Of a stretch of 64,000 nucleotides of DNA, positions 1 through 38,681 are shown in pieces (position 1 is the stretch's first letter; each line of letters begins with the position of its first letter). Under the pieces are notes generated by a model that was not told where the DNA came from, did no database searches, and saw nothing but the letters and a program-made list of their open reading frames with translations. The position numbers were made by a program, and so were the translations under genes. Origin of the DNA: Escherichia phage vB_EcoM-G3G7; the sequence record MZ234040.1; one strand, written 5' to 3'.

Positions 1-176
1 TTGAAGTTATGGTCTGCTCCAAGCGTGTGAATAATTTCTCGTGAGCGACCTGCAAATTGACTCATCCAGCAAGGAACACCCAATCTTAATTGACCAGCCG
101 CTTGACTCATCCAGCGCTGTCCTGTTTCATTTGCGGCTGAACTTCCAATCCAACCAGGAACACCAACTACTGCCAT
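1..176 (-). CDS. 38: tail-fiber adhesin gp38, N-terminal part (gene continues beyond window start)
   Basis: Minus-strand ATG at 176-174 preceded by GGAG; translation MAVVGVPGWIGSSAANETGQRWMSQAAGQLRLGVPCW... resembles the N-terminus of T2/T6-type gp38 adhesins; lies directly downstream of the gene 37 stop. Confidence 0.75.
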   Translation of the reverse strand, partial: MAVVGVPGWIGSSAANETGQRWMSQAAGQLRLGVPCWMSQFAGRSREIIHTLGADHNF

Positions 177-212
177 AATTTATACTCCAAAGGGGGCATT
201 TCCCCCTTGTTG

Positions 213-3200
213 TTAGAATTTAAAATATTTACTAATTTTGCGAGCAATTTTAGTAAAGAAAGGAGTTTTCAATTCTTTAATTTCTTCACTCATTTCCTGA
301 ATAGCCTTAATTAAAAGAGCATTCACAGCAGAGTTAGAAATTGTCAGAACATCAGATCCATCAACTTCAACTTTAGATACAGCTTCCGGTAATTCCTTTT
401 CAAGGTCCTGAGCAATAATACCAACTTCACGTTTAATAACACTACGGTCTTTAATAGACTTAACTTTATCGTAAATATAAACTTTCAGTCGACATACTTT
501 TTCAAGTGCTCCGTTTTCTAGCTCTTTTTTATTAATCTTAAGACGACCATCGGAACGAATATACACATCGTTAAAGTTACCATTACCAGGAGAATAGAAA
601 GTACCGTCGTAATGAAATTCAAATACCGCGTTAGGGTGTCCAGCCGCTGGTGATGCCTCCGCAGATCCAACACGAATAATTGCTTGCCCCCAATTGTTAG
701 GGACACGACGAATACCAAGATCGACGGCAGTTACAAACCCTTGATTGGTGATTACACTTCTTCCTTTGAGAATCGGATAATAACAATCCTGTGAAACATA
801 ACCATGATCGACGAATATTGGTGCTTCTACTCGCCATTGGTTGCCCCAATCACCCGGTTGTCTAGCAATCCATCCAGAACCGTTAATGTGTACACGATCG
901 CGGTTAACGTTAACCATTGCGATATTTTGTGGATTTAGCGAAATCTCACCATTGTTTGTGATATGTACTGCCGCCTGAGTAGCATAGCTATAAAATGCTA
1001 GCGAATTATCAGCACCACCCTTACCAATATACCAGTTACCACTCCCGTCTACGTCACCACGAATATGCAAAGCATTACCAGCAGTTGTTGATAATACAAT
1101 AGAATCACCCGGACGTTTAATAATCAATCTACCTTCGGATTCAATTTCACCAAAAAATTTAGTCTTAATTGCACCAGTCGCTAAAGTACGTTCAGTGGAA
1201 AAATGAACGCCTTTGCTGTCTTCTAACTGAATAATGTTATCGCGCGCATTATTACTATCACCCCAATGATTAAACCGGAAATAATCACGTGATTGCTTAC
1301 CACCCGCTTCAAACGTCAGCGTACCTTTACTTAAATTAACATCACCGCTAAAGGTAGCAGCAAGAGAATCACGTTCTAATTTTAAAACGTTAGCACCACT
1401 AGTACCACCTAAAGTAACATCACCAGTTCTCAATTCATAACGGAAAGGTCTATTTGTATTATAGTTTCCATTTTGATCATCTTCGTTGGTGGAAAGAATA
1501 TAAAGATTCTCTCCATAAGTACGGAAAATTGTACCAAAATTTCCGGCATACATACGGAATGCATTAGATGAGCGAAATTTAACTTCTGTTTTAAAAGTGG
1601 TAGTGTTATTAAGGTTAACAGTAGAGTTAAAATTGGTAGGAGCACCGAAGTTAACTGCGCCATTAAAATCTTGTTGAGCTGTCCATGTGTGGCGACCATC
1701 TTCAAGAACAACACGGCGGACTGTGCAAGTTCTATTTCCAGAATTACCGAACACACGAACGACAAAATAACGGTAGTTTGTCTGGGATACAGTACCGCGC
1801 CAAACCTGAACAGTACGCCCTGTGCTAGTGTGTTCGCTAGGACCAACGGAAAACATAACCAGGTTTCCGTCAATCGTCCCCCAATCCATATTTGCTGGCA
1901 TATTCTTTATTTTGTTCAAAGGAACACTAAACATACTACCAGGGACAAAATCAAAGGTTTGCCAATCTAGCTCCGCTAATTGAGTTTTAATACCACCCAT
2001 ACCCAAAGTAATTGGCAAAGAGTAAGATGTATATACTTCGTTCCATGTACCCCACGCGCCACCGGTATATGCACGCTCAAAAATACGATCGCGAGTAGTT
2101 GCACCCGTTCCGGCAGTAGTAAATTTTTGGAAAATAGCACCGCCAGAAGCACGCTGTTTAACTTCCAGCAAACCAACAATAACAGTCGGCAAACCTTCAC
2201 CGGTAGGACAGTTAATAACGGCATCAGTGCCTAAAATATTATATAACCCAGGAGTTTTAAAATCATTCAGATCTCCATCATAGAAAGTCGCTGGTGTGAC
2301 ATTACCGACTTGTTGCCACGGTCCCCATTTAGGCGCGGAAGCATCCCACGCGGCAGCAAGACAACGAGTATATACAACACCAAATCTGGTTGTATATCTT
2401 TGTGTACGAGAATAGTTTCCACCTTCATATACTTCCAAAAGACCTTGAGCTGACGACCCCTTTTCTGGGAAATTTCTGTCAAAGGTAGCAATGGAATTTG
2501 AACTATTTCGCCACAAACCAAAGTGTTCAGCGCCTCCTAGATCATTAAGATCAATTGTTGTTGACAGTGGACGAGTACCGGATTGAATATTCTGGGAAAT
2601 TTCTGTCAAAGGTAGCAATGGAATTTGAACTATTTCGCCACAAACCAAAGTGTTCAGCGCCTCCTAGATCATTAAGATCAATTGTTGTTGACAGTGGACG
2701 AGTACCGGATTGAATATTTCGCCACACACTCCACGGACCATTTACTCCGTTCCATGTAGCAGTCAAGGAACGAATATAAACATTTCCGTATCTAGTTGTA
2801 TATCTCTGAGTACCAGCAAATTGACCGGCCACAAATACTTCTAGCACACCTACAGCATTTTCTTCTGGAAATTTATTTGCTGGTTGAGCGTTGGTTGAAG
2901 TTGCTTTCGACCAAACTCCAAGATATTCTTCAACAGGCCCATACGTATCTAAATTAGCATCAGTAGGTAATTCGCCATTATTTTTTATAAATGTTGTGCT
3001 ATTGACATTTATGTCAGATGGAGTTAGCGTGATATCTTTTGACCCATCAAAGGATATACCATTAATTTTTCGTGCTGTTTTTAATTTCGTTGCAGTTGCA
3101 GCGTTACCTGTTAAATTTCCAATTATATTTCCATTAACAGTTAAAGAACCATCAATTGTTCCTCCATATTTTAAACCTAATTCTATAACACTACCTGAGT

Positions 3201-3327
3201 CATCTTTTGTGAAAATTGTTTTATCTTTTAAGTTTATAGCCAATTCACCTTCGGCTAATACTGAAGCTGCAGGACGTTGACCTGCAATTTTGCTTCTTTT
3301 AAATTGTATTTGTTTTAAAGTAGCCAT
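213..3327 (-). CDS. 37: long tail fiber distal subunit gp37; reading frame interrupted by a 127-bp tandem duplication (ORF pieces 2551..3327 and 213..2648)
   Basis: Two adjacent minus-strand ORFs (258 aa and 811 aa) in different frames, both containing [43 protein letters not shown]; removing one 127-bp copy gives one 995-codon ORF; position between gene 36 and gene 38. Confidence 0.85.
2465..2718. repeat. perfect direct tandem duplication, 2 x 127 bp (2465-2591, 2592-2718)
   Basis: Base-by-base comparison of the two copies shows identity over 127 bp, with 2 bp of junction microhomology. Confidence 0.95.
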
Positions 3328-3335
3328 AAGTCCTC

Positions 3336-3986
3336 TTAATAATAGCCGAAATCTTGAACAGAATCTTTAATTACGATTTGGTCAAATCGTGGAACGTGTG
3401 AAGGTTGAGATGCAGGATTCTGTGAAAAAAGGTTTGGCGCAGTTAAATTTCCTGTCATAGTGTCTCCAGAGCGTAATACCCTAGAGTTTGCATTTGCTGT
3501 AACAGTATTTATTGCTCCATCAACATAATCTTTGCGAGTAACATCAGATGCTGCGGAAGGAGTAGATGTAACAGTTACCGATGGAGCCGTTACAGCCCTG
3601 GTAAATGTTGTCAAACCTTCTGGCGTAATAGTAATTTGTCCAGTAGTGATTTCACTACCTGCTGGTCTAAAACTAATACCGCCAGAAGAGCCACCAACTA
3701 CAAGAGTATTACCAGTGCCGCCACCAGAACGAATTCGGATAGGGGTTTCATTATTACTTAATTGAAGATAACTATTTACCCCGTAATTAATAGTAATTGG
3801 ACCGGCGTAAGTACCACCATTAGCTTTAGAAACGAAATCGTTATCAGCTGCCTGCGGTTTATTATATTCTGAATATATTTTAAATGATTTGTAGAGTACA
3901 TCGTCACCGGCTGAATTCAATGGAAAATTTCCTTGATGCCAAATGACAGATCCACCCACAGTTGAACCTACTTTTAAATCAGCCAT
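3336..3986 (-). CDS. 36: long tail fiber distal connector gp36
   Basis: 216-aa ORF in conserved position between genes 35 and 37; T4 gp36-like size. Confidence 0.85.
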
Positions 3987-4048: not shown

Positions 4049-5164
4049 TTAAACTTCTCTAAATTCCTGTCCAAACACTTTGCCAGTTTTAGAAGAGGCT
4101 TGTGTAGGAAGTACCATTATATCTGGAGGTGAAGCCGATTCACAGACATAATTAACGCGAATACCGTTGACGCCAAATTCGGCAGGTTTTGAAATGCCGC
4201 CATTTCTTGATACTTCAGAAAAACTTAAATTTCTCATGCCGCCTTGACCTGCTTGAGCAGTTCTTTGTGCATATATCGTAAATCCTACGGCGTTTTCTGG
4301 AACAACTACATAGTCTTCTTTTAATTCCCAAGACCCAGCTTGCCCAGTAAACTCAGCTTGGGTCGAGGAAATATATCCATTTGATGCATCATAAAAACGA
4401 ATGGATATGTTTGTAGTTCCAAGATCAAGTAAATCAGCATCAGCATATAACTGTGCTTTAAGATAAAGAACATCACCAGGAATTAAATTATAGTCAGAAA
4501 GTTTACTTATAGCAGCTGAAGTTGGCAATCGCGCAATTTCGTTATTAGTTCCACCAACTGCTGACATGAATTGCTCGACACTTTCATAAGTTCTTTTTGG
4601 AAATCCTGTCGCTCCGACGTCTTCTAAACTATCAAATACAACATCTAAAATAGTTTGATAATCATCTGTGCTTTTTCTATTACTTAGTTTAACATGCTCT
4701 AATGCAATAGCTCTTTTAGAAGAAGTATAAAAAGCAGCATATGATACGTCAAATCTTGACAATACTGAATCTGATGGAAAAACTGAAGTTCCTGCTCCCC
4801 TTAACCAAGATACCACTTCAGGAGGAAAATTAACCTTTCCGCTAGTTAATATAGCAACAAGTCTATTGTTTGACAAAGAATTCATGAAACTAACAAAAGC
4901 AGCTGATGTAGTATTATTTGAAGTAGAAAAAGCATATGACTTACTATCAACTAATGCTCCTGTAGAAGGGTCAAAAACTCTTAAATGAAGACCTGCACTA
5001 AATGTTTGATTTCCAACGGGATTATCCTGAAATTTAACATATGGCCCCGCAGTAGAAAGCGGGCAAGAACCCGCTATGCTTATTTTATATCTTACTGAAT
5101 TGCTTTCCGATAAAAATGGCGTTTGGACATATCCTTGTCCAAACTCTGCCATAAATTTTTCCAT
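4049..5164 (-). CDS. 35: long tail fiber hinge connector gp35
   Basis: 371-aa ORF, conserved position between genes 34 and 36; T4 gp35 is about 372 aa. Confidence 0.85.
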   Translation of the reverse strand: MEKFMAEFGQGYVQTPFLSESNSVRYKISIAGSCPLSTAGPYVKFQDNPVGNQTFSAGLHLRVFDPSTGALVDSKSYAFSTSNNTTSAAFVSFMNSLSNNRLVAILTSGKVNFPPEVVSWLRGAGTSVFPSDSVLSRFDVSYAAFYTSSKRAIALEHVKLSNRKSTDDYQTILDVVFDSLEDVGATGFPKRTYESVEQFMSAVGGTNNEIARLPTSAAISKLSDYNLIPGDVLYLKAQLYADADLLDLGTTNISIRFYDASNGYISSTQAEFTGQAGSWELKEDYVVVPENAVGFTIYAQRTAQAGQGGMRNLSFSEVSRNGGISKPAEFGVNGIRVNYVCESASPPDIMVLPTQASSKTGKVFGQEFREV

Positions 5165-5172: not shown

Positions 5173-8100
5173 TTATTCAATCCACTCAAATTTAACAGTT
5201 TTATTCACTGGGTCAGGAATAATGCGAACATTACCAATTCGCAAGAAATCGCGAATAGTAAGATTACCTATTATTCCATTATCAGATGGGATCGCTCCTA
5301 TATCTGAAGGTTGAGGAGGGTTACCTCCGTCAAATACCTGAACAAAACTTGACCAAGAGTTTTTGGTTTTCTGCCATGTACGTGTCCAGCGAGTGGTACG
5401 TGCTTCTGGGGTCGTTGGATAAGTAATCCAATCTTGGTAAAGTGAATCAAGTGTGTTACCAAACTGAGTCAATGTACCAGGAGATTTAACTTCTTCACCA
5501 CGTTCTAAGTATGGAAGTCCAGTCACTTCATTAGTTTTTTCAACCATTTTAAAATAACCCGGGAACTGGTTATAAGTGGCTGAATCATTAATATCGATTG
5601 ACCAGAATCCTACTGTATCAGATGTTGGCGCACGGGTATATAAATCAGAGGTTTTAGTACCCTGAGAACGAATTCTCGAGTTAACAGTCAAACCACCCGA
5701 ACTTATAGTAGCACCTTTTGCAATGATTAAGCTTTCACCAATCGTTACTTGGCCAGATGCATTATTAATAGCTAAAGGACGCAATCCATTAAATCCGCCA
5801 GTTTGATCACCCGATGCAGTAAGCATAAAATTCGTTACTGACCCATCATTGCGAACAATGAAACCATAATTTCCGTTAATAGCACGGAAAGCATTTGCGC
5901 TTCGAGAAATAATTTCACCAGTTGCAGTGACTGAATTACCAAATGTTGCTACACCATTTGCATTCAATGTTCCTGAAGCATTAACATTTATCGGTGTTAC
6001 TGTACCGTTGATATTAAATGTTATATTTCCAGCTTTATTACGCTGAGAATAAAAATGACTAGACGTTTCATCACTAACTTCAAATACGGTAGAACGTGTT
6101 GTGTCTGATTCCCCACTAAATTGATTTCCCCACACTCTGACTGTCATCGTTTGAGCCGGGTTTGTTCCAGTTTGAGGTCCTTTCTCAAAAATCAGACGAG
6201 TTGCCGTTCCAGTATTAGAAATAGTTAATGTACTATTTGCTGAAACTGATCCACCGAATGTAGCAGTACTAGATGATACAAGAGGGGCACTCAGATTCGT
6301 TTGTTGGGTTAAGGTTAGTGAACCATTAACTGTTTGTGCAATGTCCCTACGAATGAACTGGAGCGAATCTAGACCATCTAATAAATTACTATCTACAGCT
6401 TTTGCTTTTAATGGCAAATAATTTGCTAATACGCGATTTAATTCATATGGTGATACTGCATAACCATTTTTCTCATATGATTCTAATGGCTGTGTTGAAC
6501 CTACCGTATCATTACCAACAAACGTTAATGAACCAGAAGAAGTTTTAACAAACCCTCTTATCAGAGTAGTTGCTGCCCAAGTTGGTTCACTCTGCACAAT
6601 CCATTTTAAATTTTTTGGAGATACAGCAGTATTTGCTGACGTTCCAGTCACAGTTTCAGACTGAGTTGCAACTTTAATAACACCTTCTTGCGATTCGGTA
6701 GATTTAGTACCTAAAAGCTTTTTAGGAGTTATTAAAACATTATCTAATGTTCCTGCAGCAGCTTCAACTTGTGTAGCTACACGAAGTGTACCACGCTGTG
6801 TCTCATTTGCTTCAAGAATATTAAGGGTATAATGGTCCCAGAGAGTTCCTGATTCAACTAATCCAGATAGAGCAACAACAGAAGTACGATCAGTACTATT
6901 AAATCTGGTTTTAATTTTTAATGGTGTAGAGATACGAGTATCGTCGACGCCTGCGTCGAATTCAACTTGCGTAGCAATTTCAGCTATACCACTTAAACTT
7001 TCAGTTGCTCTACGGTCATTTAAAGTTTTAGGAGTGACTGCACGAGTATAGTCAGTTCCTGTATTAACTTCACTTTGCGTAGCAATTTCAATTAAACCAA
7101 TTCTTCCATCAGTTGATGTCTTTTTATGTAACGTTTCTGGCGTTACAACCGCATTTGCCCATCCTTCTTGGCTTTGTCCAGCAATTACTTCACTTTCAAC
7201 TGCTAAAATTACTGCGCCTTGTTGCGTTGGAGTAGCTTTATACTGATCCAAAGCTTTAGGTGAAACAACTAAATTATTAGTGTTTTTATTATAAACATTC
7301 GTACCATTTAATTCACGACTAGAAGCTGGAGTAGCTCCTGCGGTAGATACAAAAGTTACAATACCCGATAATGTTTCAGAACCTTGACGAGCTTGAAGCT
7401 TTTTAGGAGTGATGATTGTAGTATCATCAGTACCTGTATTAGTTTCCTGCTGCGTAGCAATTTCAGCGACACCTCTGCGAGTTTCTGTAGCAGTTCTTTC
7501 ATTCAGCTTTTTAGGAGTGATGATAAGGTCATCTGCAAAAGAGAATGTGGTGTTCTGATTCACTTGAGCAGTAGTTGCTATTCTTGCAATACCTCTGCGA
7601 GTTTCTGTAGCAGTACGATTAGCTAACGTTTCTGGAGTAATTGCCAATTCTTTTTGCGGAGAATTTTCTAAATCAGCATTTGCTTGAGCTTGTGTAGCTA
7701 AAGCAATTACGCCTAATCTTGCTCTAGTAGAATTATTTAAAGAATCGACTCTTTCAACTGTTGGAACGTTTTGCTGTACAACCCAGTATTTTCCATCAGA
7801 ATCTTCTATATAAGCAAGTTGCAAAACTGGTACATAATTAGTTTCACCGTTAAAAACTAATTCTTGAACTGTTACCCATTCAGCTTCAGGCGGATATTCT
7901 GAACGTTTTGGGAATTGCAGCAATTGAACTGAAGAAGCAATTTTATCTTCACCAGCAGCTTTGATTTTAACTGTTTGTCCTTTTCTCATGTAATTCATGG
8001 AAATTTTAACAGTATCACCAACAGAAATATCAGTCGGAAGCTGAAGTTCAATTGTTTGGGTTGTTCCATTATTCGCGCCAAATACCATGACTTCTTCATT

Positions 8101-9042
8101 TGGACGAATATTTGAATTAGTTGTTATAATGCGTAAACGTGCTTTACTATCCCCGTCAAACAATCTCCACAATTTCTCATTATCGTCAAACATCAAGAAA
8201 CCGTCAATCGATGTACGGCCTTCAATGGAATGAGTTCCAACTTCTTGTACTGAAGTCGTTTCATCGTATGTAGTAACAATTGTATGATAAAGTGGATTCA
8301 GTTTATCTAAATCAACGAAATTAATAATATCGCCATGATTAGCAAATCTCGGAAGTTTAACATTAATTGGTGCAGCAGAAGTAAATCTACGTACGATAAA
8401 ATCATTAGATTGTGCTTGATATGCAGTCGATGGAGTAACAATCGCAGCTTCTCTGCTATAATCAGCAATATACATTTGCCACAAACGATTATTAAAAATG
8501 AATACCATCTGTGACTTTGGATGAGTCATTAAAACTGAACGTACCTGTTCACCTCTAAAATTGACAATACTCTGATTTGAAGAATTTATTTTAACCTGAT
8601 TTATGCCAGGTTTTCCACCGATATCTTGAATTATTACGGTTTCTCCATCAAGCGGAGAAGGTGGTAAAGTAAACTCAATGTCATTGCCAACTGATGTATC
8701 TACTGAAATTGCTTCTCCGGATTTTAATTGATATGGTCCAGATGATACGGTTGTATATACGGCATCAGTACGTAATGCTTTCCAACGAATTCTATTAAAA
8801 TTTCCAGCAGGTTTTGGAATATTATCCGTTGCTGCCCAAAAACGATTATTATAAATGATTACAAAATCTTTTAAATATCCACGAGTTGGGTCATATTGCT
8901 GAACTGTGTTTTCTTGAATTAAGTAATCAACGTTAACACCGTCAGTTCCTACGGTACGGTCAGCTAAAGCTACGTTGATTATTTTATCGCCACCTGCGTC
9001 CAGACCATCTTCTGCTCTGAACTTTCTTTTAATCTCGGCCAT
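5173..9042 (-). CDS. 34: long tail fiber proximal subunit gp34
   Basis: 1289-aa ORF (T4 gp34 length) with repeated ...TATETRRG(I/V)A.IAT... motifs; adjacent and divergent to rnh as in T4. Confidence 0.92.
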   Translation of the reverse strand: MAEIKRKFRAEDGLDAGGDKIINVALADRTVGTDGVNVDYLIQENTVQQYDPTRGYLKDFVIIYNNRFWAATDNIPKPAGNFNRIRWKALRTDAVYTTVSSGPYQLKSGEAISVDTSVGNDIEFTLPPSPLDGETVIIQDIGGKPGINQVKINSSNQSIVNFRGEQVRSVLMTHPKSQMVFIFNNRLWQMYIADYSREAAIVTPSTAYQAQSNDFIVRRFTSAAPINVKLPRFANHGDIINFVDLDKLNPLYHTIVTTYDETTSVQEVGTHSIEGRTSIDGFLMFDDNEKLWRLFDGDSKARLRIITTNSNIRPNEEVMVFGANNGTTQTIELQLPTDISVGDTVKISMNYMRKGQTVKIKAAGEDKIASSVQLLQFPKRSEYPPEAEWVTVQELVFNGETNYVPVLQLAYIEDSDGKYWVVQQNVPTVERVDSLNNSTRARLGVIALATQAQANADLENSPQKELAITPETLANRTATETRRGIARIATTAQVNQNTTFSFADDLIITPKKLNERTATETRRGVAEIATQQETNTGTDDTTIITPKKLQARQGSETLSGIVTFVSTAGATPASSRELNGTNVYNKNTNNLVVSPKALDQYKATPTQQGAVILAVESEVIAGQSQEGWANAVVTPETLHKKTSTDGRIGLIEIATQSEVNTGTDYTRAVTPKTLNDRRATESLSGIAEIATQVEFDAGVDDTRISTPLKIKTRFNSTDRTSVVALSGLVESGTLWDHYTLNILEANETQRGTLRVATQVEAAAGTLDNVLITPKKLLGTKSTESQEGVIKVATQSETVTGTSANTAVSPKNLKWIVQSEPTWAATTLIRGFVKTSSGSLTFVGNDTVGSTQPLESYEKNGYAVSPYELNRVLANYLPLKAKAVDSNLLDGLDSLQFIRRDIAQTVNGSLTLTQQTNLSAPLVSSSTATFGGSVSANSTLTISNTGTATRLIFEKGPQTGTNPAQTMTVRVWGNQFSGESDTTRSTVFEVSDETSSHFYSQRNKAGNITFNINGTVTPINVNASGTLNANGVATFGNSVTATGEIISRSANAFRAINGNYGFIVRNDGSVTNFMLTASGDQTGGFNGLRPLAINNASGQVTIGESLIIAKGATISSGGLTVNSRIRSQGTKTSDLYTRAPTSDTVGFWSIDINDSATYNQFPGYFKMVEKTNEVTGLPYLERGEEVKSPGTLTQFGNTLDSLYQDWITYPTTPEARTTRWTRTWQKTKNSWSSFVQVFDGGNPPQPSDIGAIPSDNGIIGNLTIRDFLRIGNVRIIPDPVNKTVKFEWIE

Positions 9043-11309: not shown

Positions 11310-11942
11310 ATGAATATAGTATATTGGTTTACATTTGAAGACCGTGTCAAAAATAAGACTCCGCCATACTACTATATCGGTAGTAAATTAAATTGCTCAT
11401 TTGAGAACGGAATAATATATGACTCTTCCGGAAAGGAATACTGGAGCTCATGTAAACAAAAAAGATTTTTGAATGCGCTAATGCTTCAAAAACCGAGCGT
11501 TAAAATAATTCAAATTGATGATGACTTGGATGTTATTGAAGCAGAACGAAAATACCAACTTGAAGTAAATGCCAGAGATAATCCAGACTATTTTAATCTG
11601 GTATATGCTGGTGGTGGATTTGGTGTGAGTGGTGAAACTCATCCAGCAAAAGACCCGGAAGTTAGAGAGCATATGAGATTGGCTAATTATATGAACCGTG
11701 ACGATTTTAGACCTTGGAAAACATCACGAGCTAATATAGAGTCTTGGAAATTATCTCATATTGCTTACGAGAATTATGTGTTATTATTATCCTCTAATCT
11801 GTACGGTAAAACTCCCGGATGGCGAAGAGTTAAAGGTAATATAAATATAACTGATACAACTGCTAAATCGATGGTAAAGTATTTCAACTCAGGTTGGATA
11901 CCTCTCGAAGACCCAGAGTATTGCGAATTATGCCAGCTATGA
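11310..11942 (+). CDS. segG: GIY-YIG-like homing endonuclease SegG
   Basis: 210-aa ORF between genes 59 and 32 (T4 segG position); N-terminal IVY...YIGSK resembles a GIY-YIG motif. Confidence 0.7.
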   Translation: MNIVYWFTFEDRVKNKTPPYYYIGSKLNCSFENGIIYDSSGKEYWSSCKQKRFLNALMLQKPSVKIIQIDDDLDVIEAERKYQLEVNARDNPDYFNLVYAGGGFGVSGETHPAKDPEVREHMRLANYMNRDDFRPWKTSRANIESWKLSHIAYENYVLLLSSNLYGKTPGWRRVKGNINITDTTAKSMVKYFNSGWIPLEDPEYCELCQL

Positions 11943-14097: not shown

Positions 14098-15126
<1,029 letters not shown>

Positions 15127-15675: not shown

Positions 15676-16691
15676 TAATTGAGGCCTGAGTATAAGGTGA
15701 CTTATACTTGTAATCTATCTAAACGGGGAACCTCTCTAGTAGACAATCCCGTGCTAAATTGTAGGACTGCCCTTTAATAAATACTTCTATATTTAAAGAG
15801 GTATTTATGAAAAGCGGAATTTATCAGATTAAAAATACTTTAAACAATAAAGTATATGTAGGAAGTGCTAAAGATTTTGAAAAGAGATGGAAGAGGCATT
15901 TTAAAGATTTAGAAAAAGGATGCCATTCTTCTATAAAGCTTCAGAGGTCTTTTAACAAACATGGTAATGTGTTTGAATGTTCTATTTTGGAAGAAATTCC
16001 ATATGAGAAAGATTTGATTATTGAACGAGAAAATTTTTGGATTAAAGAGCTTAATTCTAAAATTAATGGATACAATATTGCTGATGCAACGTTTGGTGAT
16101 ACATGTTCTACGCATCCATTAAAAGAAGAAATTATTAAGAAACGTTCTGAAACTGTTAAAGCTAAGATGCTTAAACTTGGACCTGATGGTCGGAAAGCTC
16201 TTTACAGTAAACCCGGAAGTAAAAACGGGCGTTTGAATCCAGAAACCCATAAGTTTTGTAAGTGCGGTGTTCGCATACAAACTTCTGCTTATACTTGTAG
16301 TAAATGCAGAAATCGTTCAGGTGAAAATAATTCATTCTTTAATCATAAGCATTCAGACATAACTAAATCTAAAATATCAGAAAAGATGAAAGGTAAAAAG
16401 CCTAGTAATATTAAAAAGATTTCATGTGATGGGGTTATTTTTGATTGTGCAGCAGATGCAGCTAGACATTTTAAAATTTCGTCTGGATTAGTTACTTATC
16501 GTGTAAAATCTGATAAATGGAATTGGTTCTACATAAATGCCTAACGACTATCCCTTTGGGGAGTAGGGTCAAGTGACTCGAAACGATAGACAACTTGCTT
16601 TAACAAGTTGGAGATATAGTCTGATCTGCATGGTGACATGCAGCTGGATATAATTCCGGGGTAAGATTAACGACCTTATCTGAACATAATG
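15676..16691 (+). mobile_element. group I self-splicing intron of td (1016 nt) carrying the I-TevI ORF
   Basis: Intron 5' end TAATTGAGGCCTGAG... and 3' end ...CTGAACATAATG (terminal G) match the T4 td intron; joining the exons gives a 286-aa thymidylate synthase. Confidence 0.9.
15807..16544 (+). CDS. I-TevI: GIY-YIG homing endonuclease I-TevI (intron-encoded)
   Basis: 245-aa ORF MKSGIYQIKNTLNNKVYVGSAKDFEKRWKRHF... with GIY-YIG motif and C-terminal DNA-binding region, inside the td intron. Confidence 0.93.
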   Translation: MKSGIYQIKNTLNNKVYVGSAKDFEKRWKRHFKDLEKGCHSSIKLQRSFNKHGNVFECSILEEIPYEKDLIIERENFWIKELNSKINGYNIADATFGDTCSTHPLKEEIIKKRSETVKAKMLKLGPDGRKALYSKPGSKNGRLNPETHKFCKCGVRIQTSAYTCSKCRNRSGENNSFFNHKHSDITKSKISEKMKGKKPSNIKKISCDGVIFDCAADAARHFKISSGLVTYRVKSDKWNWFYINA

Positions 16692-17571: not shown

Positions 17572-19826
17572 TTAATGTTATCAAAAGTAGTGGTGTTTCT
17601 CAGAGCTTTGACCCGCAAAAAATTATTAAAGTTTTATCTTGGGCATCTGAGGGAACATCAGTAGATCCTTATGAATTATATGAAAATATTAAATCTTATC
17701 TCCGTGATGGAATGACAACTGATGATATTCAGACTATTGTCATTAAGGCCGCTGCGAATTCTATTTCGGTCGAAGAGCCTGATTATCAATATGTAGCTGC
17801 ACGTTGTCTAATGTTCGCTCTTCGTAAGCATGTTTATGGGCAGTATGAACCGCGTTCATTTATTGACCATATTTCTTACTGTGTAAATGAAGGTAAATAC
17901 GACCCTGAACTGTTGTCAAAATATTCAGCAGAAGAAATTACATTTTTAGAATCAAAAATTAAGCACGAACGGGATATGGAATTTACTTATTCCGGGGCGA
18001 TGCAATTAAAAGAAAAATATCTAGTTAAAGATAAAACCACTGGTCAAATTTATGAAACTCCACAGTTTGCATTTATGACTATTGGAATGGCCTTGCATCA
18101 AGATGAACCTGTTGATAGATTAAAACATGTTATCCGTTTTTATGAAGCGGTATCTACTCGACAGATTTCATTACCAACTCCTATTATGGCTGGTTGCCGT
18201 ACTCCAACTCGGCAGTTTAGTTCATGCGTTGTTATTGAGGCAGGCGATTCACTGAAGTCTATCAATAAGGCTTCTGCTTCAATTGTTGAATATATCTCTA
18301 AACGCGCTGGAATTGGTATTAACGTTGGTATGATTCGTGCTGAAGGTTCTAAGATTGGCATGGGTGAAGTACGCCATACTGGTGTTATTCCTTTTTGGAA
18401 ACATTTTCAGACTGCTGTTAAATCATGCTCACAGGGTGGAATTCGTGGCGGCGCTGCTACTGCTTATTATCCTATTTGGCATTTGGAAGTTGAAAATCTT
18501 CTTGTTTTGAAAAATAACAAAGGCGTAGAAGAAAACCGCATTCGTCATATGGATTATGGTGTTCAACTGAATGATTTGATGATGGAACGTTTTGGAAAGA
18601 ACGATTACATTACTTTGTTCAGTCCCCATGAAATGGGCGGAGAGCTTTATTATTCTTATTTTAAAGACCAAGACCGTTTCCGTGAATTATACGAAGCAGC
18701 AGAAAAAGACCCTAATATTCGTAAAAAGCGTATTAAAGCCCGTGAACTATTTGAATTGCTCATGACTGAACGCTCAGGAACAGCAAGAATTTATGTACAG
18801 TTCATTGATAATACGAATAACTATACTCCGTTTATTCGTGAAAAGGCACCTATTCGTCAGAGTAACTTGTGCTGTGAAATTGCTATTCCAACAAATGATG
18901 TGAATAGTCCTGATGCTGAAATTGGATTGTGTACTCTCTCTGCATTCGTACTAGATAATTTTGACTGGCAAGACCAAGATAAAATTAATGAATTGGCAGA
19001 AGTTCAAGTTCGTGCTCTTGATAATCTGTTGGATTACCAAGGATATCCAGTTCCTGAAGCAGAAAAAGCTAAAAAGCGTCGTAACCTCGGTGTAGGTGTT
19101 ACCAACTATGCAGCTTGGCTGGCAAGTAACTTTGCTTCTTATGAAGATGCTAATGATTTAACACATGAACTATTTGAGAGATTACAGTATGGACTCATTA
19201 AAGCATCCATTAAGCTCGCCAAAGAAAAAGGACCTTGCGAATATTATTCAGACACTCGTTGGTCTCGAGGCGAATTACCTATCGACTGGTACAATAAAAA
19301 GATTGACCAAATCGCAGCTCCAAAATACGTTTGTGACTGGTCGGCGCTGCGGGAAGACCTTAAGCTCTTTGGCATCCGTAATAGCACATTATCAGCACTT
19401 ATGCCATGTGAGTCATCTTCCCAAGTTTCTAACAGTACAAACGGTATCGAGCCTCCACGTGGACCAGTCTCTGTTAAAGAATCAAAAGAGGGTTCCTTTA
19501 ATCAAGTCGTGCCCAATATTGAGCATAACATAGACCTTTACGACTATACATGGAAATTAGCTAAGAAAGGTAATAAACCTTATCTTACGCAGGTAGCTAT
19601 TATGCTGAAATGGGTATGTCAATCAGCTTCAGCAAATACATACTATGACCCGCAGATTTTTCCAAAAGGAAAGGTTCCAATGTCAATAATGATTGATGAC
19701 ATGCTATACGGATGGTATTATGGCATTAAAAATTTCTATTATCATAATACCCGTGATGGTTCTGGTACTGATGATTATGAAATAGAAACTCCAAAAGCTG
19801 AAGATTGTTCATCCTGTAAATTATGA
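17562..19826 (+). CDS. nrdA: aerobic ribonucleotide reductase large subunit
   Basis: 754-aa ORF MQLINVIKSSGVSQSFDPQKIIKVLSWASEG... matches T4 NrdA (ATP-cone and catalytic domain). Confidence 0.95.
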   Translation: MQLINVIKSSGVSQSFDPQKIIKVLSWASEGTSVDPYELYENIKSYLRDGMTTDDIQTIVIKAAANSISVEEPDYQYVAARCLMFALRKHVYGQYEPRSFIDHISYCVNEGKYDPELLSKYSAEEITFLESKIKHERDMEFTYSGAMQLKEKYLVKDKTTGQIYETPQFAFMTIGMALHQDEPVDRLKHVIRFYEAVSTRQISLPTPIMAGCRTPTRQFSSCVVIEAGDSLKSINKASASIVEYISKRAGIGINVGMIRAEGSKIGMGEVRHTGVIPFWKHFQTAVKSCSQGGIRGGAATAYYPIWHLEVENLLVLKNNKGVEENRIRHMDYGVQLNDLMMERFGKNDYITLFSPHEMGGELYYSYFKDQDRFRELYEAAEKDPNIRKKRIKARELFELLMTERSGTARIYVQFIDNTNNYTPFIREKAPIRQSNLCCEIAIPTNDVNSPDAEIGLCTLSAFVLDNFDWQDQDKINELAEVQVRALDNLLDYQGYPVPEAEKAKKRRNLGVGVTNYAAWLASNFASYEDANDLTHELFERLQYGLIKASIKLAKEKGPCEYYSDTRWSRGELPIDWYNKKIDQIAAPKYVCDWSALREDLKLFGIRNSTLSALMPCESSSQVSNSTNGIEPPRGPVSVKESKEGSFNQVVPNIEHNIDLYDYTWKLAKKGNKPYLTQVAIMLKWVCQSASANTYYDPQIFPKGKVPMSIMIDDMLYGWYYGIKNFYYHNTRDGSGTDDYEIETPKAEDCSSCKL

Positions 19827-19877: not shown

Positions 19878-21056
19878 ATGAGCACAGTTTTTAATACAAA
19901 TCCAGTTGATGTTTTAAAAGAACCTATGTTTTTTGGTTCAGGTCTTGGTATTGCGCGTTATGATATTCAACGTCATAAAGTTTTTGAAGATTTAACCGAA
20001 AAGCAATTATCATTTTTCTGGCGTCCTGAAGAAGTAAACTTAATGATGGATGCTGCACAGTTTAATAAGCTTCCTCAGTATCAGCAAAATATTTTTACTA
20101 ACAACTTGAAGTATCAATCACTTTTGGATAGCATTCAGGGTCGTGCGCCGTCTGCTGTACTTATGTCATTAATTTCAGACCCAAGCCTTGATACATGGGT
20201 TGCTACATGGACTTTTAGTGAAACTATTCACAGTCGTTCATACACTCATATCATGCGAAATCTTTATACTGATCCGTCAAAGGTATTTGATGAGATTGTA
20301 TTAGATGAAGCTATTATGAAACGTGCTGAATCCATTGGACGTTATTATGATGATGTTCTGATTAAAACTCGTTATTGGGAAAACGCTAAAGCTGATATCG
20401 AATACCAAAAAGAAATTAATGCAGACGAAGACGTTATTGAAGATGCTATTGAGCATGAGACATATTGGAAGCGTGAGCTAATGAAATCTCTTTACCTCTG
20501 TTTGCATGTAATCAACGCATTGGAAGCTATTCGTTTTTATGTATCTTTTGCATGTACCTTTAACTTCCATAAGAACATGGAAATCATGGAAGGTAATGCC
20601 AAGATTATGAAGTTCATTGCACGCGATGAACAGCTTCACCTTAAAGGCACCCAATATATTATTCGTCAACTTCAACTTGGCACTGATGGCGATGAATGGG
20701 TTAAAATTGCTCAAGAGTGCGAGCAAGAAGCAGTTGATATTTTCATGGAAGTTAACCGCCAAGAAAAAGATTGGGCAGTTCATTTATTTAAAGATGGCGA
20801 TGTTCCTGGATTAAATACAAATAGCATGTGGAGCTTTATTGATTACTTAACTGTATCTCGTATGAAACAGTGTGGTCTTCCATGCCCAATTACCGATGCT
20901 CCGGTTAAACATCCATATCCTTGGATTCGTGAATATCTTAATTCTGATAATGTTCAATCTGCGCCACAAGAAGTAGAATTGTCATCTTACCTTGTTGCAC
21001 AGATTGATAATGATGTTGATGATAAAGTTATGATGAGTTTTAAAAAATACTTTTAA
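19878..21056 (+). CDS. nrdB: aerobic ribonucleotide reductase small subunit, uninterrupted (no intron)
   Basis: 392-aa continuous ORF with R2 ferritin-like motifs; no intervening sequence. Confidence 0.93.
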   Translation: MSTVFNTNPVDVLKEPMFFGSGLGIARYDIQRHKVFEDLTEKQLSFFWRPEEVNLMMDAAQFNKLPQYQQNIFTNNLKYQSLLDSIQGRAPSAVLMSLISDPSLDTWVATWTFSETIHSRSYTHIMRNLYTDPSKVFDEIVLDEAIMKRAESIGRYYDDVLIKTRYWENAKADIEYQKEINADEDVIEDAIEHETYWKRELMKSLYLCLHVINALEAIRFYVSFACTFNFHKNMEIMEGNAKIMKFIARDEQLHLKGTQYIIRQLQLGTDGDEWVKIAQECEQEAVDIFMEVNRQEKDWAVHLFKDGDVPGLNTNSMWSFIDYLTVSRMKQCGLPCPITDAPVKHPYPWIREYLNSDNVQSAPQEVELSSYLVAQIDNDVDDKVMMSFKKYF

Positions 21057-22674: not shown

Positions 22675-22704
22675 GTTTACAAGCCCCTCGTGTTGTGTTA
22701 TAGT
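22675..22704 (+). promoter_or_regulatory. T4-type early promoter upstream of alc; part of a 52-bp repeat also present at 38622-38673
   Basis: GTTTAC at 22675-22680, 18-nt spacer, TATAGT at 22699-22704. Confidence 0.6.
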
Positions 22705-22735
22705 AGTCTTACTGACATAACATGAGGACTTTATG

Positions 22736-24102: not shown

Positions 24103-24106
<4 letters not shown>
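23876..24106 (+). CDS. small early protein (pseT.1-like by position)
   Basis: 76-aa ORF, translationally coupled (ATGA overlap). Confidence 0.55.
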
Positions 24107-25324
<1,218 letters not shown>

Positions 25325-34475: not shown

Positions 34476-34505
34476 ATAAATAGAATAAACACTAGAGAGG
34501 CTATG

Positions 34506-36560
34506 ATGGAACTTATTACAGAATTATTTGACGAAGATACTACTCTTCCGATTACAAACTTAAATCCAAAGAAGAAAATACCGCAAATTTTTTCAGTTCA
34601 TGTTGATGATGCAATTGAACAACCAGGCTTTCGTTTATGTACCTATACATCTGGAGGTGATACTAATCGCGATTTAAAGATGGGCGATAAAATGATGCAT
34701 ATTGTTCCTTTTACATTAACTGCTAAAGGTTCAATTGCTAAATTAAAAGGTCTTGGTCCAAGCCCAATTAATTATATCAATTCAGTTTTTACTGTTGCGA
34801 TGCAAACAATGCGTCAGTATAAAATTGATGCCTGTATGCTTCGTATTCTTAAGTCTAAAACCGCTGGTCAAGCTCGACAAATTCAAGTTATTGCTGATAG
34901 ACTTATCCGTAGTCGTTCAGGTGGCAGATACGTCCTTCTTAAGGAACTCTGGGATTACGATAAAAAGTATGCATATATTCTTATACATCGCAAAAATGTA
35001 TCACTAGAAGACATTCCGGGAGTTCCGGAAATTAGTACTGAGCTCTTTACTAAAGTTGAATCGAAGGTCGGTGATGTTTATATCAATAAAGATACTGGAG
35101 CTCAAGTAACTAAAAATGAGGCAATTGCAGCATCTATTGCGCAAGAAAATGATAAACGTTCTGACCAAGCTGTAATCGTTAAAGTTAAAATTTCCCGTAG
35201 AGCAATTGCGCAAAGTCAATCATTGGAATCTTCTAGATTTGAAACGCCGATGTTTCAAAAATTTGAGGCTTCAGCAGCAGAATTAAATAAACCTGCTGAC
35301 GCTCCTTTAATTTCTGACGCTAATGAATTAACTGTTATTTCTACTTCAGGATTTGCATTAGAGAATGCTCTTAGTAGTGTTACAGCTGGAATGGCATTCA
35401 GAGAAGCTTCTATAATTCCTGAAGATAAAGAATCTGATGTTAATGCAGAAATAAAAAATAAAGCTTTAGAAAGATTACGAAAAGAATCTATTACTTCAAT
35501 AAAAACTTTAGAAACTATTGCTTCTATAGTTGATGATACTTTAGAAAAATATAAAGGTGCTTGGTTAGAAAGAAACATTAACAAGCATTCGCATTTAAAT
35601 CAAGATGCTGCGAATGAGTTAGTACAAAATTCTTGGAATGCAATAAAAACAAAGATTATTCGAAGAGAATTGCGTGGATATGCTCTTACCGCTGGATGGT
35701 CACTACATCCTATAGTCGAAAATAAAGATTCATCTAAATACACACCGGCACAAAAACGCGGAATTCGTGAATACGTAAGTTCAGGATATGTAGACATAAA
35801 TAACGCTCTTTTGGGATTATATAATCCAGATGAGCGTACAAGTATTTTGACAGCATCTGATATAGAAAAAGCTATTGATAATTTAGATTCTGCCTTTAAA
35901 AATGGTGAACGATTACCAAAAGGTATTACTTTGTATCGTTCACAACGAATGTTACCTTCAATATATGAAGCACTGGTAAAAAATCGAGTTTTTTATTTTA
36001 GAAATTTTGTGTCAACATCATTATATCCAAATATTTTTGGTACCTGGATGACTGATTCATCTGTGGGTGTTTTACCAGACGAAAAGCGTTTAAGTGTTTC
36101 TATTGATAAAACTGATGAAGGACTAGTAAATTCTAGCGATAATTTAGTTGGAATTGGATGGGTTATTACTGGGGCTGATAAAGTCAATGTTGTTTTACCA
36201 GGTGGAAGTTTAGCACCTTCAAATGAAATGGAAGTCATTTTGCCACGTGGATTAATGGTCAAAGTTAATAAAATAACCGATGCATCTTACAATGATGGAA
36301 CAGTTAAAACTAACAACAAGCTTATTCAAGCTGAAGTTATGACCACAGAAGAACTCACCGAATCGGTAATTTATGACGGTGACCGTCTAATGGAAACCGG
36401 CGAAGTAGTTACAATGACAGGTGATATTGAAATAGAAGACAGAGTTGATTTTGCATCATTTGTTTCATCAAATGTTAAACAGAAAGTAGAATCATCTCTT
36501 GGAATTATTGCGTCTTGTATAGATATTGCAAACATGCCTTACAAGTTCGTTCAAGGATAA
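34506..36560 (+). CDS. alt: Alt, virion-packaged mono-ADP-ribosyltransferase (modifies host RNA polymerase)
   Basis: About 684-aa ORF MELITELFDEDTTLPITNLNPKKKIPQIFSVHVDDAIEQPGFRLCTYTSGGDTNRDLKMGDK...; ART catalytic signature R (LYRSQ), STS (FVSTSL), E-x-E (EMEVILPRG). Confidence 0.9.
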   Translation: MELITELFDEDTTLPITNLNPKKKIPQIFSVHVDDAIEQPGFRLCTYTSGGDTNRDLKMGDKMMHIVPFTLTAKGSIAKLKGLGPSPINYINSVFTVAMQTMRQYKIDACMLRILKSKTAGQARQIQVIADRLIRSRSGGRYVLLKELWDYDKKYAYILIHRKNVSLEDIPGVPEISTELFTKVESKVGDVYINKDTGAQVTKNEAIAASIAQENDKRSDQAVIVKVKISRRAIAQSQSLESSRFETPMFQKFEASAAELNKPADAPLISDANELTVISTSGFALENALSSVTAGMAFREASIIPEDKESDVNAEIKNKALERLRKESITSIKTLETIASIVDDTLEKYKGAWLERNINKHSHLNQDAANELVQNSWNAIKTKIIRRELRGYALTAGWSLHPIVENKDSSKYTPAQKRGIREYVSSGYVDINNALLGLYNPDERTSILTASDIEKAIDNLDSAFKNGERLPKGITLYRSQRMLPSIYEALVKNRVFYFRNFVSTSLYPNIFGTWMTDSSVGVLPDEKRLSVSIDKTDEGLVNSSDNLVGIGWVITGADKVNVVLPGGSLAPSNEMEVILPRGLMVKVNKITDASYNDGTVKTNNKLIQAEVMTTEELTESVIYDGDRLMETGEVVTMTGDIEIEDRVDFASFVSSNVKQKVESSLGIIASCIDIANMPYKFVQG

Positions 36561-36563
36561 ATC

Positions 36564-38621
36564 ATGGAACTTATTACAGAATTATTTGACGGCGCTTCGG
36601 CGCCGGTTGTTAACTTAAATCCTAAGCATAAAATACCACAAATTTTTGCTATTCAAGCCGGCGAAGAAAGCGTGCTTCCTGGATTTAGATTTTGTACATA
36701 CACCTCTGGTGGTGATACGAATAAAAACGTTAAGCCAGGCGATAAAATGATGCATATCGTAATGATAGGTGTTAATGAGAAACTATCATTAGTTAAGCTT
36801 AAAAACTTGGGTGGAAATCCAATTGGTGTCATTAATGCCGTTTTTGATACTGCTCTTCAAACAATGAAACAGTATAAAATCGACGCATGCCTATTCCGCG
36901 TACTAAAAAGTAAAACAAATGGCGCAGCTCGTCAAATGCAAGTTATTGCTGACCGTTTAGTACGTACTAAAGGAGCAGGTCGATATGTTCTTTTAAAGGA
37001 AATCTGGGACTATGATAAGAAATATGCATATATTATGGTTTACCGTAAAAATGCCAATTTAGAAGACATTCCAGGTGTACCTCCTATTTCAACTGAGTTA
37101 TTCACAAAAGTTGAATCAAAGGTCGGTGATGTTTATGTAGACGTTAAAACAGGAAATGCTGTTCCTAAAGCTGTCGCTGTTGCTGCTTCTATTGCTTTAG
37201 AAAATGATAAGCGCACGGACCAAGCTGTTATTCAGAAAACTAAAATCAGTCGTCGATTAGCAGCACAAGCTCAATATTCTACTGTTGATGCTTCACTTCA
37301 GGGTGATAGCTTTGCTGCCAAGAAATATCAAGAGTTTGAATCTAAAGTTCCGGTATATAAAGCAGAAGGTCCGATGAACTCTGGCGTTATCCAGATTGGT
37401 TCAAACTTCAGCAAAGGAGCTATCGGTGGTATGAGAAGTGCTTCTCGTTTTAAATCTAACGATTATGAACTAGAAAGCTTCCGAAATCATATTGCATTGG
37501 CCCATGCACGTTTACGTGATCCATCTATCAAGTTGCAGAGCGATATAACATATCAAGGTTCTCAAGAATATTTAAAGAATAAAGAATTCTTTGATTATAA
37601 AACTGATAAAATTTTAAGCGATCTTGCTGACATTAATATTTCTAATAGCTTTGATGTTATTAAGAAAATTATCAATGATTTGGTTAAAGGTTCTAAAGCC
37701 ACGCCAGATGAAAAGACAGCTATTATTCAATTTGTAATGAATGGCATTTATAAATTGATTAATGAATCTGCTGCCCAGGCATATGAATACGCAAGCACCG
37801 AAGTAGCTCCAAAAGGACTGACTCAGGCTGAATCTGATGTAATTGAAGATTATTGTGCAGATTCATATGTTGAAATGAACTCGTTCCTTTTGGGTAAACC
37901 AGATTCTACCCGTGAAGAATACATGGAACGAGCTATTAAGCACATCGAGACGTTAGATTCTGCCTTTGCCAAAGGATCAGTTCTTCCTCCAGGAACTACA
38001 CTTTACCGTGGGCAAGAAGTTACCTTTAAAACTTTGCGTCATAACATTGAAAATAAAATGTTCTATTTCAAGAACTTCGTATCCACATCGCTTAAACCAA
38101 ATATCTTCGGTGAGCATGGTAAAAACTATATGGCTCTAGATGATTCTGGCGCAGTATTTTCTGGCGAAGGAGAAGGTTCCGTTGATACAGAAGATTTGAT
38201 GCATATGGGTAGTCATTCTACATATGCTAATGAAGATGCTGAAACTAGCGTGGGTATGGTAATTAAAGGAGCTGAGCGAATCAAAGTTATCGTTCCAGGT
38301 CATTTATCAGGATTTCCATCAGAAGCTGAAGTTATTCTACCACGTGGAATTTTACTGAAGATTAATAAAGTAAGTACGTACTTTATGAAAGAAACTGCTT
38401 ATAACAAGTATCTAATCGAAGGTACAATCGTTCCTCCTTCTGAACAATTAGAAGAATCAGTATATGATGGAGACCATCTAATGGAAACTGGTGAAGTTCG
38501 TCCAATGGCTGGATTTAATCAATTCCTTGTAGAAGAATCAAAAGAAGAGGAAAATGAAGTTTCTCAAATCTTGGCTTCTTTGGTTAACATCAACGGAATG
38601 TCTAAAAAGTTCAAAATGTAG
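36564..38621 (+). CDS. Alt paralog (second Alt-like ADP-ribosyltransferase)
   Basis: 685-aa ORF sharing the N-terminal MELITELFD... and C-terminal catalytic region (LYRGQ, FVSTSL, EAEVILPRG) with Alt, but with a divergent middle region. Confidence 0.85.
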   Translation: MELITELFDGASAPVVNLNPKHKIPQIFAIQAGEESVLPGFRFCTYTSGGDTNKNVKPGDKMMHIVMIGVNEKLSLVKLKNLGGNPIGVINAVFDTALQTMKQYKIDACLFRVLKSKTNGAARQMQVIADRLVRTKGAGRYVLLKEIWDYDKKYAYIMVYRKNANLEDIPGVPPISTELFTKVESKVGDVYVDVKTGNAVPKAVAVAASIALENDKRTDQAVIQKTKISRRLAAQAQYSTVDASLQGDSFAAKKYQEFESKVPVYKAEGPMNSGVIQIGSNFSKGAIGGMRSASRFKSNDYELESFRNHIALAHARLRDPSIKLQSDITYQGSQEYLKNKEFFDYKTDKILSDLADINISNSFDVIKKIINDLVKGSKATPDEKTAIIQFVMNGIYKLINESAAQAYEYASTEVAPKGLTQAESDVIEDYCADSYVEMNSFLLGKPDSTREEYMERAIKHIETLDSAFAKGSVLPPGTTLYRGQEVTFKTLRHNIENKMFYFKNFVSTSLKPNIFGEHGKNYMALDDSGAVFSGEGEGSVDTEDLMHMGSHSTYANEDAETSVGMVIKGAERIKVIVPGHLSGFPSEAEVILPRGILLKINKVSTYFMKETAYNKYLIEGTIVPPSEQLEESVYDGDHLMETGEVRPMAGFNQFLVEESKEEENEVSQILASLVNINGMSKKFKM

Positions 38622-38650: not shown

Positions 38651-38681
38651 AGTCTTACTGACATAACATGAGGAACACAAA

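Follow-up and report, generated by a model that had tools for sequence, protein, structure and literature searches.

A T6-subtype gp37/gp38 tail-fibre cassette in Escherichia phage vB_EcoM-G3G7, with a 127-bp duplication in gene 37 best explained as an assembly artefact

The window analysed here, a stretch of 64,000 nucleotides from record MZ234040 of Escherichia phage vB_EcoM-G3G7 (G3G7), opens with the ordinary distal long-tail-fibre and adhesin module of the genus Tequatrovirus, in its T6 subtype, which is known biology. In the record, gene 37 of this module is split by an exact 127-bp tandem duplication, and this is best explained as an artefact of assembly and not as phage biology. We consider it highly probable that the two observations together amount to a standard T6-subtype gp37/gp38 cassette of a T-even phage in which the duplication is artefactual. 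The fibre region contains the following features:

1..176, minus strand: gene 38, 5' part only (58 codons and 2 nt, the gene continuing upstream of the window)
213..3327, minus strand: gene 37 (distal half-fibre subunit) in its recorded form, 3115 nt with the frame shifted by the 127-bp duplication
213..2589, minus strand: the part of gene 37 that runs in the native frame from repeat copy 2 down to the stop codon
378..554, minus strand: Peptidase_S74 domain, an intramolecular chaperone (PF13884, 43 bits against a cut-off of 22; residues 883-941 of the 995 in repaired gp37)
2462: single-nucleotide difference from the sibling isolate G3G6
2463..2589: duplication copy 2 (exact 127-bp tandem repeat)
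2590..2716: duplication copy 1, in gene order (exact 127-bp tandem repeat)
2551..3327, minus strand: ORF A of gene 37 (258 aa: native gp37 residues 1-246, then 12 out-of-frame residues and a stop)
3336..3986, minus strand: gene 36, the distal connector and upstream neighbour of gene 37
5164..4049, minus strand: gene 35, next after gene 36
9042..5173, minus strand: gene 34, next after gene 35

Gene 38 lies immediately downstream of gene 37: its ATG (176) is separated from the gene 37 stop (213) by 36 nt, and in the sibling phages gene 38 is followed by the holin gene t. The fragment within the window (minus strand, 176..3) has a translation that starts MAVVGVPGWIGSSAANETGQRWMSQAAGQLRLGVPCWMSQFAGRSREIIHTLGADHNF and is cut by the window edge. 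The Pfam profile PF21721 (Gp38_N) matches it over positions 1-40 of 40 with a score of 74.9 bits (E 5e-21, cut-off 25); phage M1 and several other phages have the same 58 residues in their gp38 (100% identity), and T6 gp38 differs from them at 5 of 58 positions. The earlier note had recognized an adhesin of the T2/T6 class in this N-terminus, and the Gp38_N match, the identity to M1 and the likeness to T6 confirm this and refine it to the T6 subtype. The note had named a best alignment with T4 gp38 as the contrary outcome; T4 gp38 shows no similarity to the fragment, with only a 5-residue match at a BLASTP E-value of 3.3. Judged by its sequence, the fragment is the N-terminal attachment domain of an adhesin-type gp38 of the T6 subtype, and not of the T4 chaperone type.

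The full-length protein can be read in the sibling G3G6, where gp38 has 265 aa and its first 58 residues, encoded by the shared 176 nt, are those of the window fragment. In addition to Gp38_N, the G3G6 protein contains the Pfam GP38 domain (PF05268, 225 bits) with visible glycine runs, and it matches PDB entries 9v85 and 6f45_D. Its overall identity to T6 gp38 is 75% and its hypervariable segments differ from those of T6; it would therefore not be expected to share the Tsx specificity of T6. The 94% identity of the sibling gp38 to that of RB32 suggests OmpA plus LPS as the likely receptor, an assignment based on the protein of the sibling, of which the window covers only the first 58 residues. 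T2 was also considered as the closest model and rejected, with identities of 47% for gp38 and 46% for the gp37 tip against 75% and 88% for T6.

Deletion of one repeat copy from gene 37 restores a single ORF of 2988 nt and 995 aa. Aligned over its full length with T6 gp37, the repaired protein shows 88% identity in a patchy pattern, with blocks of around 100% alternating with blocks of around 75%. The comparison of the gp37 C-terminus with the T phages, proposed in the earlier note, gave a T6-like result: the last 96 residues are nearly identical to those of T6, the T2 tip is 46% identical, and there is little resemblance to T4 gp37, which is limited to the first 66 residues (80% identity) and weak matches in the middle of the protein. 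The gp37 C-terminus also has a weak match to the S16 gp37 tip (PDB 6f45_A, E 6e-4). Going by sequence, the T6-subtype C-terminus of gp37 and the T6-subtype N-terminus of gp38 form the expected lock-and-key pairing.

Cleavage of the gp37 C-terminus and the pairing of gp38 and gp37 subtypes are both described in the literature (Trojet et al., 2011, PMC3157838). By analogy, the C-terminal ~113 residues of the G3G7 protein (window positions 216-554) are expected to be cleaved before gp38 caps the fibre. The gp37 trimer would make up the distal half-fibre, with the C-terminal Peptidase_S74 domain acting as a chaperone in cis and then cleaving itself off; the 265-residue gp38 would dock onto the new gp37 tip via its conserved N-terminal domain, and would use its hypervariable loops, framed by glycine-rich motifs, to recognize an outer-membrane protein.

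The two copies of the duplication abut in a repeat search, with 100% identity and a spacing of 127, and Tandem Repeats Finder (TRF) reports a period of 127, 2.0 copies and 100% matches, extending the repeat by 2 bases (an AA microhomology). The junction of the copies in gene 37 reads ...TTTCCCAGAA|TATTCAATCC..., and the same copy-to-copy junction can be written as ...GACAGAAATTTCCCAGAA|TATTCAATCCGGTACTCG.... As 127 is not divisible by 3, the essential gene 37 is broken in the record into two ORFs of 258 and 811 aa, and removing one copy mends the frame. The 811-aa ORF spans 213..2648 because the ORF listing stretches the downstream piece to a TTG at 2648, in the shifted frame of copy 1. A public gene collection, queried for the exact 258-aa product of ORF A, returned no record. 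The repeated stretch corresponds to codons ~204-246 and falls within the N-terminal quarter of gp37.

The duplication is found in none of the 71 matching phage records, and MZ234040 (168,649 bp) is exactly 127 bp longer than the record of G3G6 (168,522 bp). Over the 64 kb, the window and G3G6 are the same at every other base except for one substitution at position 2462 (T against C on the plus strand; E247K in gp37), which lies directly against the repeat. The siblings of G3G7, and the progeny of crosses in which it was a parent, have an intact gene 37 without the duplication. A 27-mer spanning the junction is absent from IMG/VR; neither this absence nor the lack of a record for the ORF A product decides whether the duplication is real.

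The SPAdes assembler by default selects k automatically up to 127 for reads of at least 250 nt, from the list 21, 33, 55, 77, 99 and 127. Two repeat lengths in this batch of records coincide with these values: 127, the largest k, in G3G7, and 55 in the batch-mate CHD2BS1, which has an exact 55-bp tandem duplication at 18015-18125 of its record that G3G6 lacks. The G3G7 study used SPAdes 3.13/3.14 with MiSeq 600-cycle (2x300) reads (PMC8614997), and the terminal overlap that SPAdes leaves on phage contigs has been described as an artefact needing removal (PMC5923482, PMC8104045). We propose that the repeat would be such a k = 127 overlap, left at the ends of a circular or circularly permuted contig, and that it would have turned internal when the genome, presumably rotated, was given a new first base at a chosen gene and the overlap was left untrimmed. 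The batch-mate records share coordinates and have a CDS start at base 1, and were therefore probably re-opened after assembly. The position of the substitution fits this account, since a variant in a de Bruijn graph of k = 127 would open a bubble, and for a variant at position p the two arms would meet again exactly at the k-mer that begins at p+1; this k-mer would be a branch vertex, and a circular path cut there would be printed twice. The earlier note had treated the tandem duplication in gene 37 as real; its effect on the frame and the evidence above favor an artefact.

It is highly improbable, in our estimation, that the duplication is real in G3G7, having arisen spontaneously, for example where the 2-bp AA microhomology allowed slipped or illegitimate recombination, and possibly being present in a large subpopulation that reverts by homologous recombination. 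T-even genomes do acquire tandem duplications, and gp37 is one of the known sites (Tetart et al., 1996, as cited in PMC8614997). The record of UPWr_E2 also has an exact, frame-breaking tandem duplication in gene 37, a repeat of 349 bp, the 2-base extension found by TRF is a short microhomology, and error-prone repair could in principle account for a substitution next to the junction. However, a gene needed for the long tail fibres would be frame-shifted in a phage that forms plaques on 49% of the strain panel and served as a parent in the crosses (PMC8614997), the length of the duplication is exactly the maximum k of SPAdes, and CHD2BS1 has a 55-bp analogue. The identity of the remaining 64 kb to a sibling isolate, and the lack of the duplication in siblings and progeny, also speak against a real event, as does, weakly, the absence of the junction 27-mer from IMG/VR. 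Published host-range duplications are in-frame and C-terminal, and the duplication in gene 37 is neither.

A host-range duplication of the kind described by Tetart et al. for T4 gp37 was rejected as a model for the same features: 127 nt is out of frame, and codons ~204-246 are N-terminal. Rescue of the broken gene by ribosomal frameshifting or by a two-piece gp37 was likewise rejected; it has no support, and the siblings have one intact ORF. Most doubtful of all is the suggestion that the duplication is present in most G3G7 genomes and that production of the long tail fibres depends on frequent recombinational loss of a copy; if this were true, gene 37 would be reversibly on and off in a therapeutic phage stock. 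An untrimmed assembly overlap is thus our preferred explanation of the duplication.

The origin of the cassette was considered together with the mobile elements of the window:

11310..11942, plus strand: segG homing endonuclease gene, between genes 59 and 32
15676..16691, plus strand: td group I intron (~1016 nt, nearly identical to T4; boundaries approximate, from the T4 alignment)
15807-16544, plus strand: I-TevI ORF within the td intron (Pfam GIY-YIG, I-TevI_ZnF and I-TevI_DNA-bd)
19878..21056, plus strand: nrdB (392 aa, a single Pfam Ribonuc_red_sm stretch, no intron)

The earlier note had listed segG and the td intron with I-TevI as present and the nrdB intron as absent, and all were found as it described. 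SegG is identical to its T4 counterpart at 210 of 210 residues, and the gene is absent from the 59/32 site in T2 and T6. I-TevI is identical to the T4 protein at 244 of 245 residues, and the thymidylate synthase is interrupted by the td intron at Pfam profile position 175/176; in T6 the td halves flank a 738-nt ORF of the same length as I-TevI. A search of the 64-kb window with Rfam at gathering thresholds gave no match, and a permissive search detected only the 3' part of the td intron (Intron_gpI, 16413-16643, 42.5 bits against a cut-off of 50, E 3e-9). Alignment to T4 shows no counterpart in the window for T4 138458-139057 (600 bp that include the nrdB intron) or 139720-140419, and mobE is absent between nrdA and nrdB. 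T4 has six homing-endonuclease elements in this span; the window has two of them, segG and I-TevI with the td intron, and lacks the other four, segD, segE, mobE and the nrdB intron with I-TevIII.

We consider it rather unlikely that a genome derived from T4, with segG and the td intron as its marks, gained a T2/T6-type gene 37-38 cassette in a recent recombination event that altered its host range. Homology to T4 is indeed lost at window 3173, ~50 codons from the start of gene 37, and has not returned where the window cuts off gene 38, and the identity to T6 within gene 37 is patchy; moreover, exchange of genes 37 and 38 has been shown experimentally in the same phage group (PMC8614997) and is documented in T-even phages generally (PMC3157838). 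Against this, T4 and T6 are equally close to the backbone: outside the cassette, the window is 94-97% identical to T6 and 93-98% identical to T4. Most T4-like phages have the adhesin form of gp38 (Trojet et al., 2011, PMC3157838), so that T4 is the exception; 912 records match the N-terminal fragment of gp38, compared with 297 that match the T4-type gp38, the latter including lambda-like Tfa proteins. SegG and the td intron are themselves mobile and are found in many adhesin-type phages, with segG and an adhesin gp38 occurring together in RB5, PYps55T, a15, ES12, BCPSen_003 and Jbel, among many independent phages. With only two of six T4 elements present, and no donor and recipient pair or recent breakpoint identified, the suggestion in the earlier note that a T2/T6-type module in a T4-type genome is a telling mosaic is not supported as anything special. 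The segG gene and the td intron with I-TevI are sporadic selfish elements and say little about the origin of the fibre cassette.

Taken together, T6-type gp37/gp38 cassettes and a patchy distribution of homing endonucleases are the norm in Tequatrovirus, and the value of the present analysis is in quality control. MZ234040, the record of a phage-therapy breeding parent, appears to hold an untrimmed 127-bp overlap that would divide gene 37, the main host-range gene, into two false ORFs. Such entries would mislead both the mining of tail fibres for host-range prediction and scans of genomes for duplications.

Among known systems, T6 (AP018814) shares the gene order of the window and the sizes of both proteins, with 995 aa here against 994 aa for gp37 and 265 aa in the sibling against 265 aa for gp38; unlike the window, T6 has no segG. 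The gp38 of RB32/RB33, which has OmpA plus LPS as its receptor (PMC3157838), has the same architecture of glycine-rich motifs and hypervariable segments as G3G6 gp38, which is 94.4% identical to that of RB32, a divergence of ~6%. The complex of the gp37 tip and gp38 from Salmonella phage S16 (PDB 6F45) is a structural template for gp38 capping the gp37 trimer, with G3G6 gp38 matching chain D (E 3e-51) and the gp37 C-terminus matching chain A weakly; S16 is nevertheless distant, with ~50% identity in the N-terminal fragment of gp38 and a different host and receptor. T4 has the same locus, but there gp37 itself bears the receptor-binding tip and lacks a Peptidase_S74 domain, and T4 gp38 is a Tfa-like assembly chaperone unrelated to the gp38 of the window. 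The duplication, in turn, resembles the terminal k-mer overlap of SPAdes in being an exact repeat of 127 in a SPAdes assembly of long MiSeq reads; that overlap is terminal, whereas the repeat in the window is internal, which the putative re-opening of the genome at a gene start would explain.

The first 9042 nt of the window hold a T-even long-tail-fibre operon, which runs on the minus strand:

9042..5173, minus strand: gene 34
5164..4049, minus strand: gene 35
3986..3336, minus strand: gene 36
3327..213, minus strand: gene 37
176..3, minus strand: gene 38, first 58 codons

On the plus strand there follow rnh, dsbA, 33, 59, segG, 32, frd, a split td, nrdA, nrdB and further genes, collinear with T4 and T6. 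An earlier note on this DNA had placed a tandem duplication in gene 37, and the record does contain one: positions 2463-2589 and 2590-2716 are exact copies of 127 bp, 100% identical and with no spacer. Because 127 is not a multiple of three, the frame of gene 37 is broken; the N-terminal ORF (2551..3327, minus strand, 258 aa) runs through 246 native and 12 foreign residues before it ends, and the remaining gp37 falls in a second ORF.

None of the 71 phage records matching the region carries the duplication. The nearest of them come from the MZ2340xx genome series of Loose et al. (2021), and base 1 of the window corresponds to base 64001 in G3F6, G3F8, G3F9 and G3G6. Positions 64001-127873 of G3G6, a sibling of G3G7, are identical to the window at every base, apart from the duplication and a single substituted base, 2462, which directly adjoins it. 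The genomes of G3G7 (MZ234040; 168,649 bp, PMC8614997) and G3G6 (168,522 bp) differ in length by exactly 127 bp.

Although the duplication is present in the record, it is most likely not a real feature of the phage, and we regard its origin as an assembly artefact as very probable. For reads as long as those of a 600-cycle run, the default final k of SPAdes is 127. SPAdes 3.13/3.14 was run on MiSeq v3 600-cycle reads to assemble these genomes (PMC8614997), and the 127-bp terminal overlap that SPAdes leaves on contigs of circular or permuted genomes has been described as an artefact that needs trimming (PMC5923482, PMC8104045). Records of this batch start at base 1 of a CDS and were therefore re-opened after assembly, a step by which an untrimmed terminal overlap would become a tandem repeat inside the sequence. 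The SNP at 2462 fits this account: where position p varies, a k = 127 graph would form a bubble closing at the k-mer that starts at p+1, here 2463-2589, which is the repeated unit; this k-mer would be a branch vertex and the natural cut point of the circular path. A truly frame-shifted gene 37 is, moreover, hard to reconcile with the plaquing of G3G7 on 49% of a UPEC panel, its service as a breeding parent (PMC8614997), and the intact gene 37 of its relatives and progeny. Relative to G3G6, the substitution at 2462 changes Glu247 of gp37 to Lys in a block that varies between G3G7 and T6; if the stock is polymorphic at this site, the change could mark a true minor host-range variant.

The artefact reading is supported by a second record of the same submission, CHD2BS1 (MZ234027.1), where gene 47 carries at its end an exact 55-bp tandem duplication (18015-18125) that is absent from G3G6 and accounts for a 55-base coordinate offset. 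The value 55 is another SPAdes k, and this repeat is probably a further artefact left by an untrimmed overlap. In a record from an unrelated study, UPWr_E2 (PP418986.1), an exact tandem duplication with a period of 349 bp lies within gene 37 (2122-2820) and disrupts the reading frame, leaving the gene as two CDS; identity to G3G6 is 96.6% upstream of it and 99.8% downstream, a pattern that looks like misassembly of a mixed or recombinant population. Elsewhere in the window, a 288-nt tandem repeat with 74-76% identity (50043-50618), in the region aligning to the T4 hoc gene, is old and diverged, unlike the exact 127-bp duplication.

The mobile elements are as the earlier note listed them: SegG is identical to that of T4 (210/210), I-TevI matches at 244 of 245 residues within a td intron that differs from its T4 counterpart at about five positions, and the NrdB frame is uninterrupted. 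When T4 94-161.5 kb was aligned with the window, segD, segE, mobE with nrdB.1, and the 600-bp nrdB intron had no counterpart, so that two of the six T4 elements of this span are present. segG is absent from T2 and T6; in T6 a 738-nt ORF of the same length as I-TevI separates the two td halves. Several of the 141 phage records with segG also encode an adhesin-type gp38 (RB5, PYps55T, a15, ES12, BCPSen_003 and Jbel), and outside genes 37-38 the window is about equally near to T4 (93-98% identity) and T6 (94-97%). The combination is therefore common and marks no particular exchange event, which leaves the proposed sign of host-range module exchange unremarkable; tail-fibre recombination is well documented in this phage group (PMC8614997).

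Several smaller features were observed. The 5' part of nrdB (19878-20551) has just 85% identity to T4, against about 97% on both flanks, and coincides exactly with the T4 site of mobE and the nrdB intron, both absent here. A 54-nt repeat (GTTTACAAG.CCCTCGTGTTGTGTTATAGTAG...GAGGA) occurs at 22675-22728 and 38621-38674, 16 kb apart with 98% identity; judging from its GTTTAC and TATAGT hexamers and terminal GAGGA, it may combine a promoter with a ribosome-binding site and possibly represents a copied regulatory cassette. Two tandem alt-like ADP-ribosyltransferase genes (34503-35081 and 36561-37136; about 70% DNA identity) are arranged as in T6, whereas T4 has a single alt gene plus the remnants alt.-1 and alt.-2. 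Small insertions relative to T4 lie between frd and td (14924-15126; a hypothetical CDS in the G3G6 annotation) and at 24109-24423, where T6 aligns across and an extra 106-aa ORF (24103-24423) precedes pseT.

Our translation of the gp38 fragment agrees exactly with the one quoted previously, and its classification as a T2/T6-type adhesin rather than the T4 chaperone is correct. Against Pfam Gp38_N ("Phage tail fibre adhesin Gp38 N-terminal domain") the fragment scores 74.9 bits. It has no similarity to T4 gp38 (E 3.3), so the best alignment with T4 gp38 that would have refuted the earlier note's reading is not what is seen. Phage M1 and many Tequatrovirus records have a gp38 100% identical to the fragment, whereas T6 gp38 differs at 5 of 58 positions and T2 gp38 is much more distant; T6 subtype is the more precise label. 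Gene 38 beyond codon 58 falls outside the window, and full-length features were read from G3G6, which agrees over the 176 shared nt. Its gp38 (265 aa) has the GP38 glycine-rich specificity domain, matches the solved structures 9v85 and 6f45_D, and is 94.4% identical to gp38 of RB32, whose receptor is OmpA plus LPS (PMC3157838); this likeness suggests the same receptor here. The description in the earlier note was thus accurate, the region holds no new biology, and the useful outcome is to flag the database record carrying the duplication.

With one 127-bp copy deleted, the repaired gene 37 has a product of 995 aa, which at residues 883-941 matches Peptidase_S74, the intramolecular chaperone of endosialidase-type fibres. 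According to Trojet et al. (PMC3157838), gp38 of T2/T6-type phages caps gp37 once the C-terminus of gp37 has been cleaved, and gp38 N-termini fall into T6-, T2- and K3-like subtypes, each with a matching gp37 C-terminus; they also describe the adhesin as the predominant form of gp38, rather than the T4 form. Both partners in the window are of the T6 subtype. The repaired gp37 aligns well with that of T4 only in the first 66 residues (80%) and with that of T2 only at the N-terminus (75%) and the tip (46%), while T6 gp37 is 88% identical over the full length, with divergent blocks interleaved among near-identical ones and the last 96 residues almost identical.
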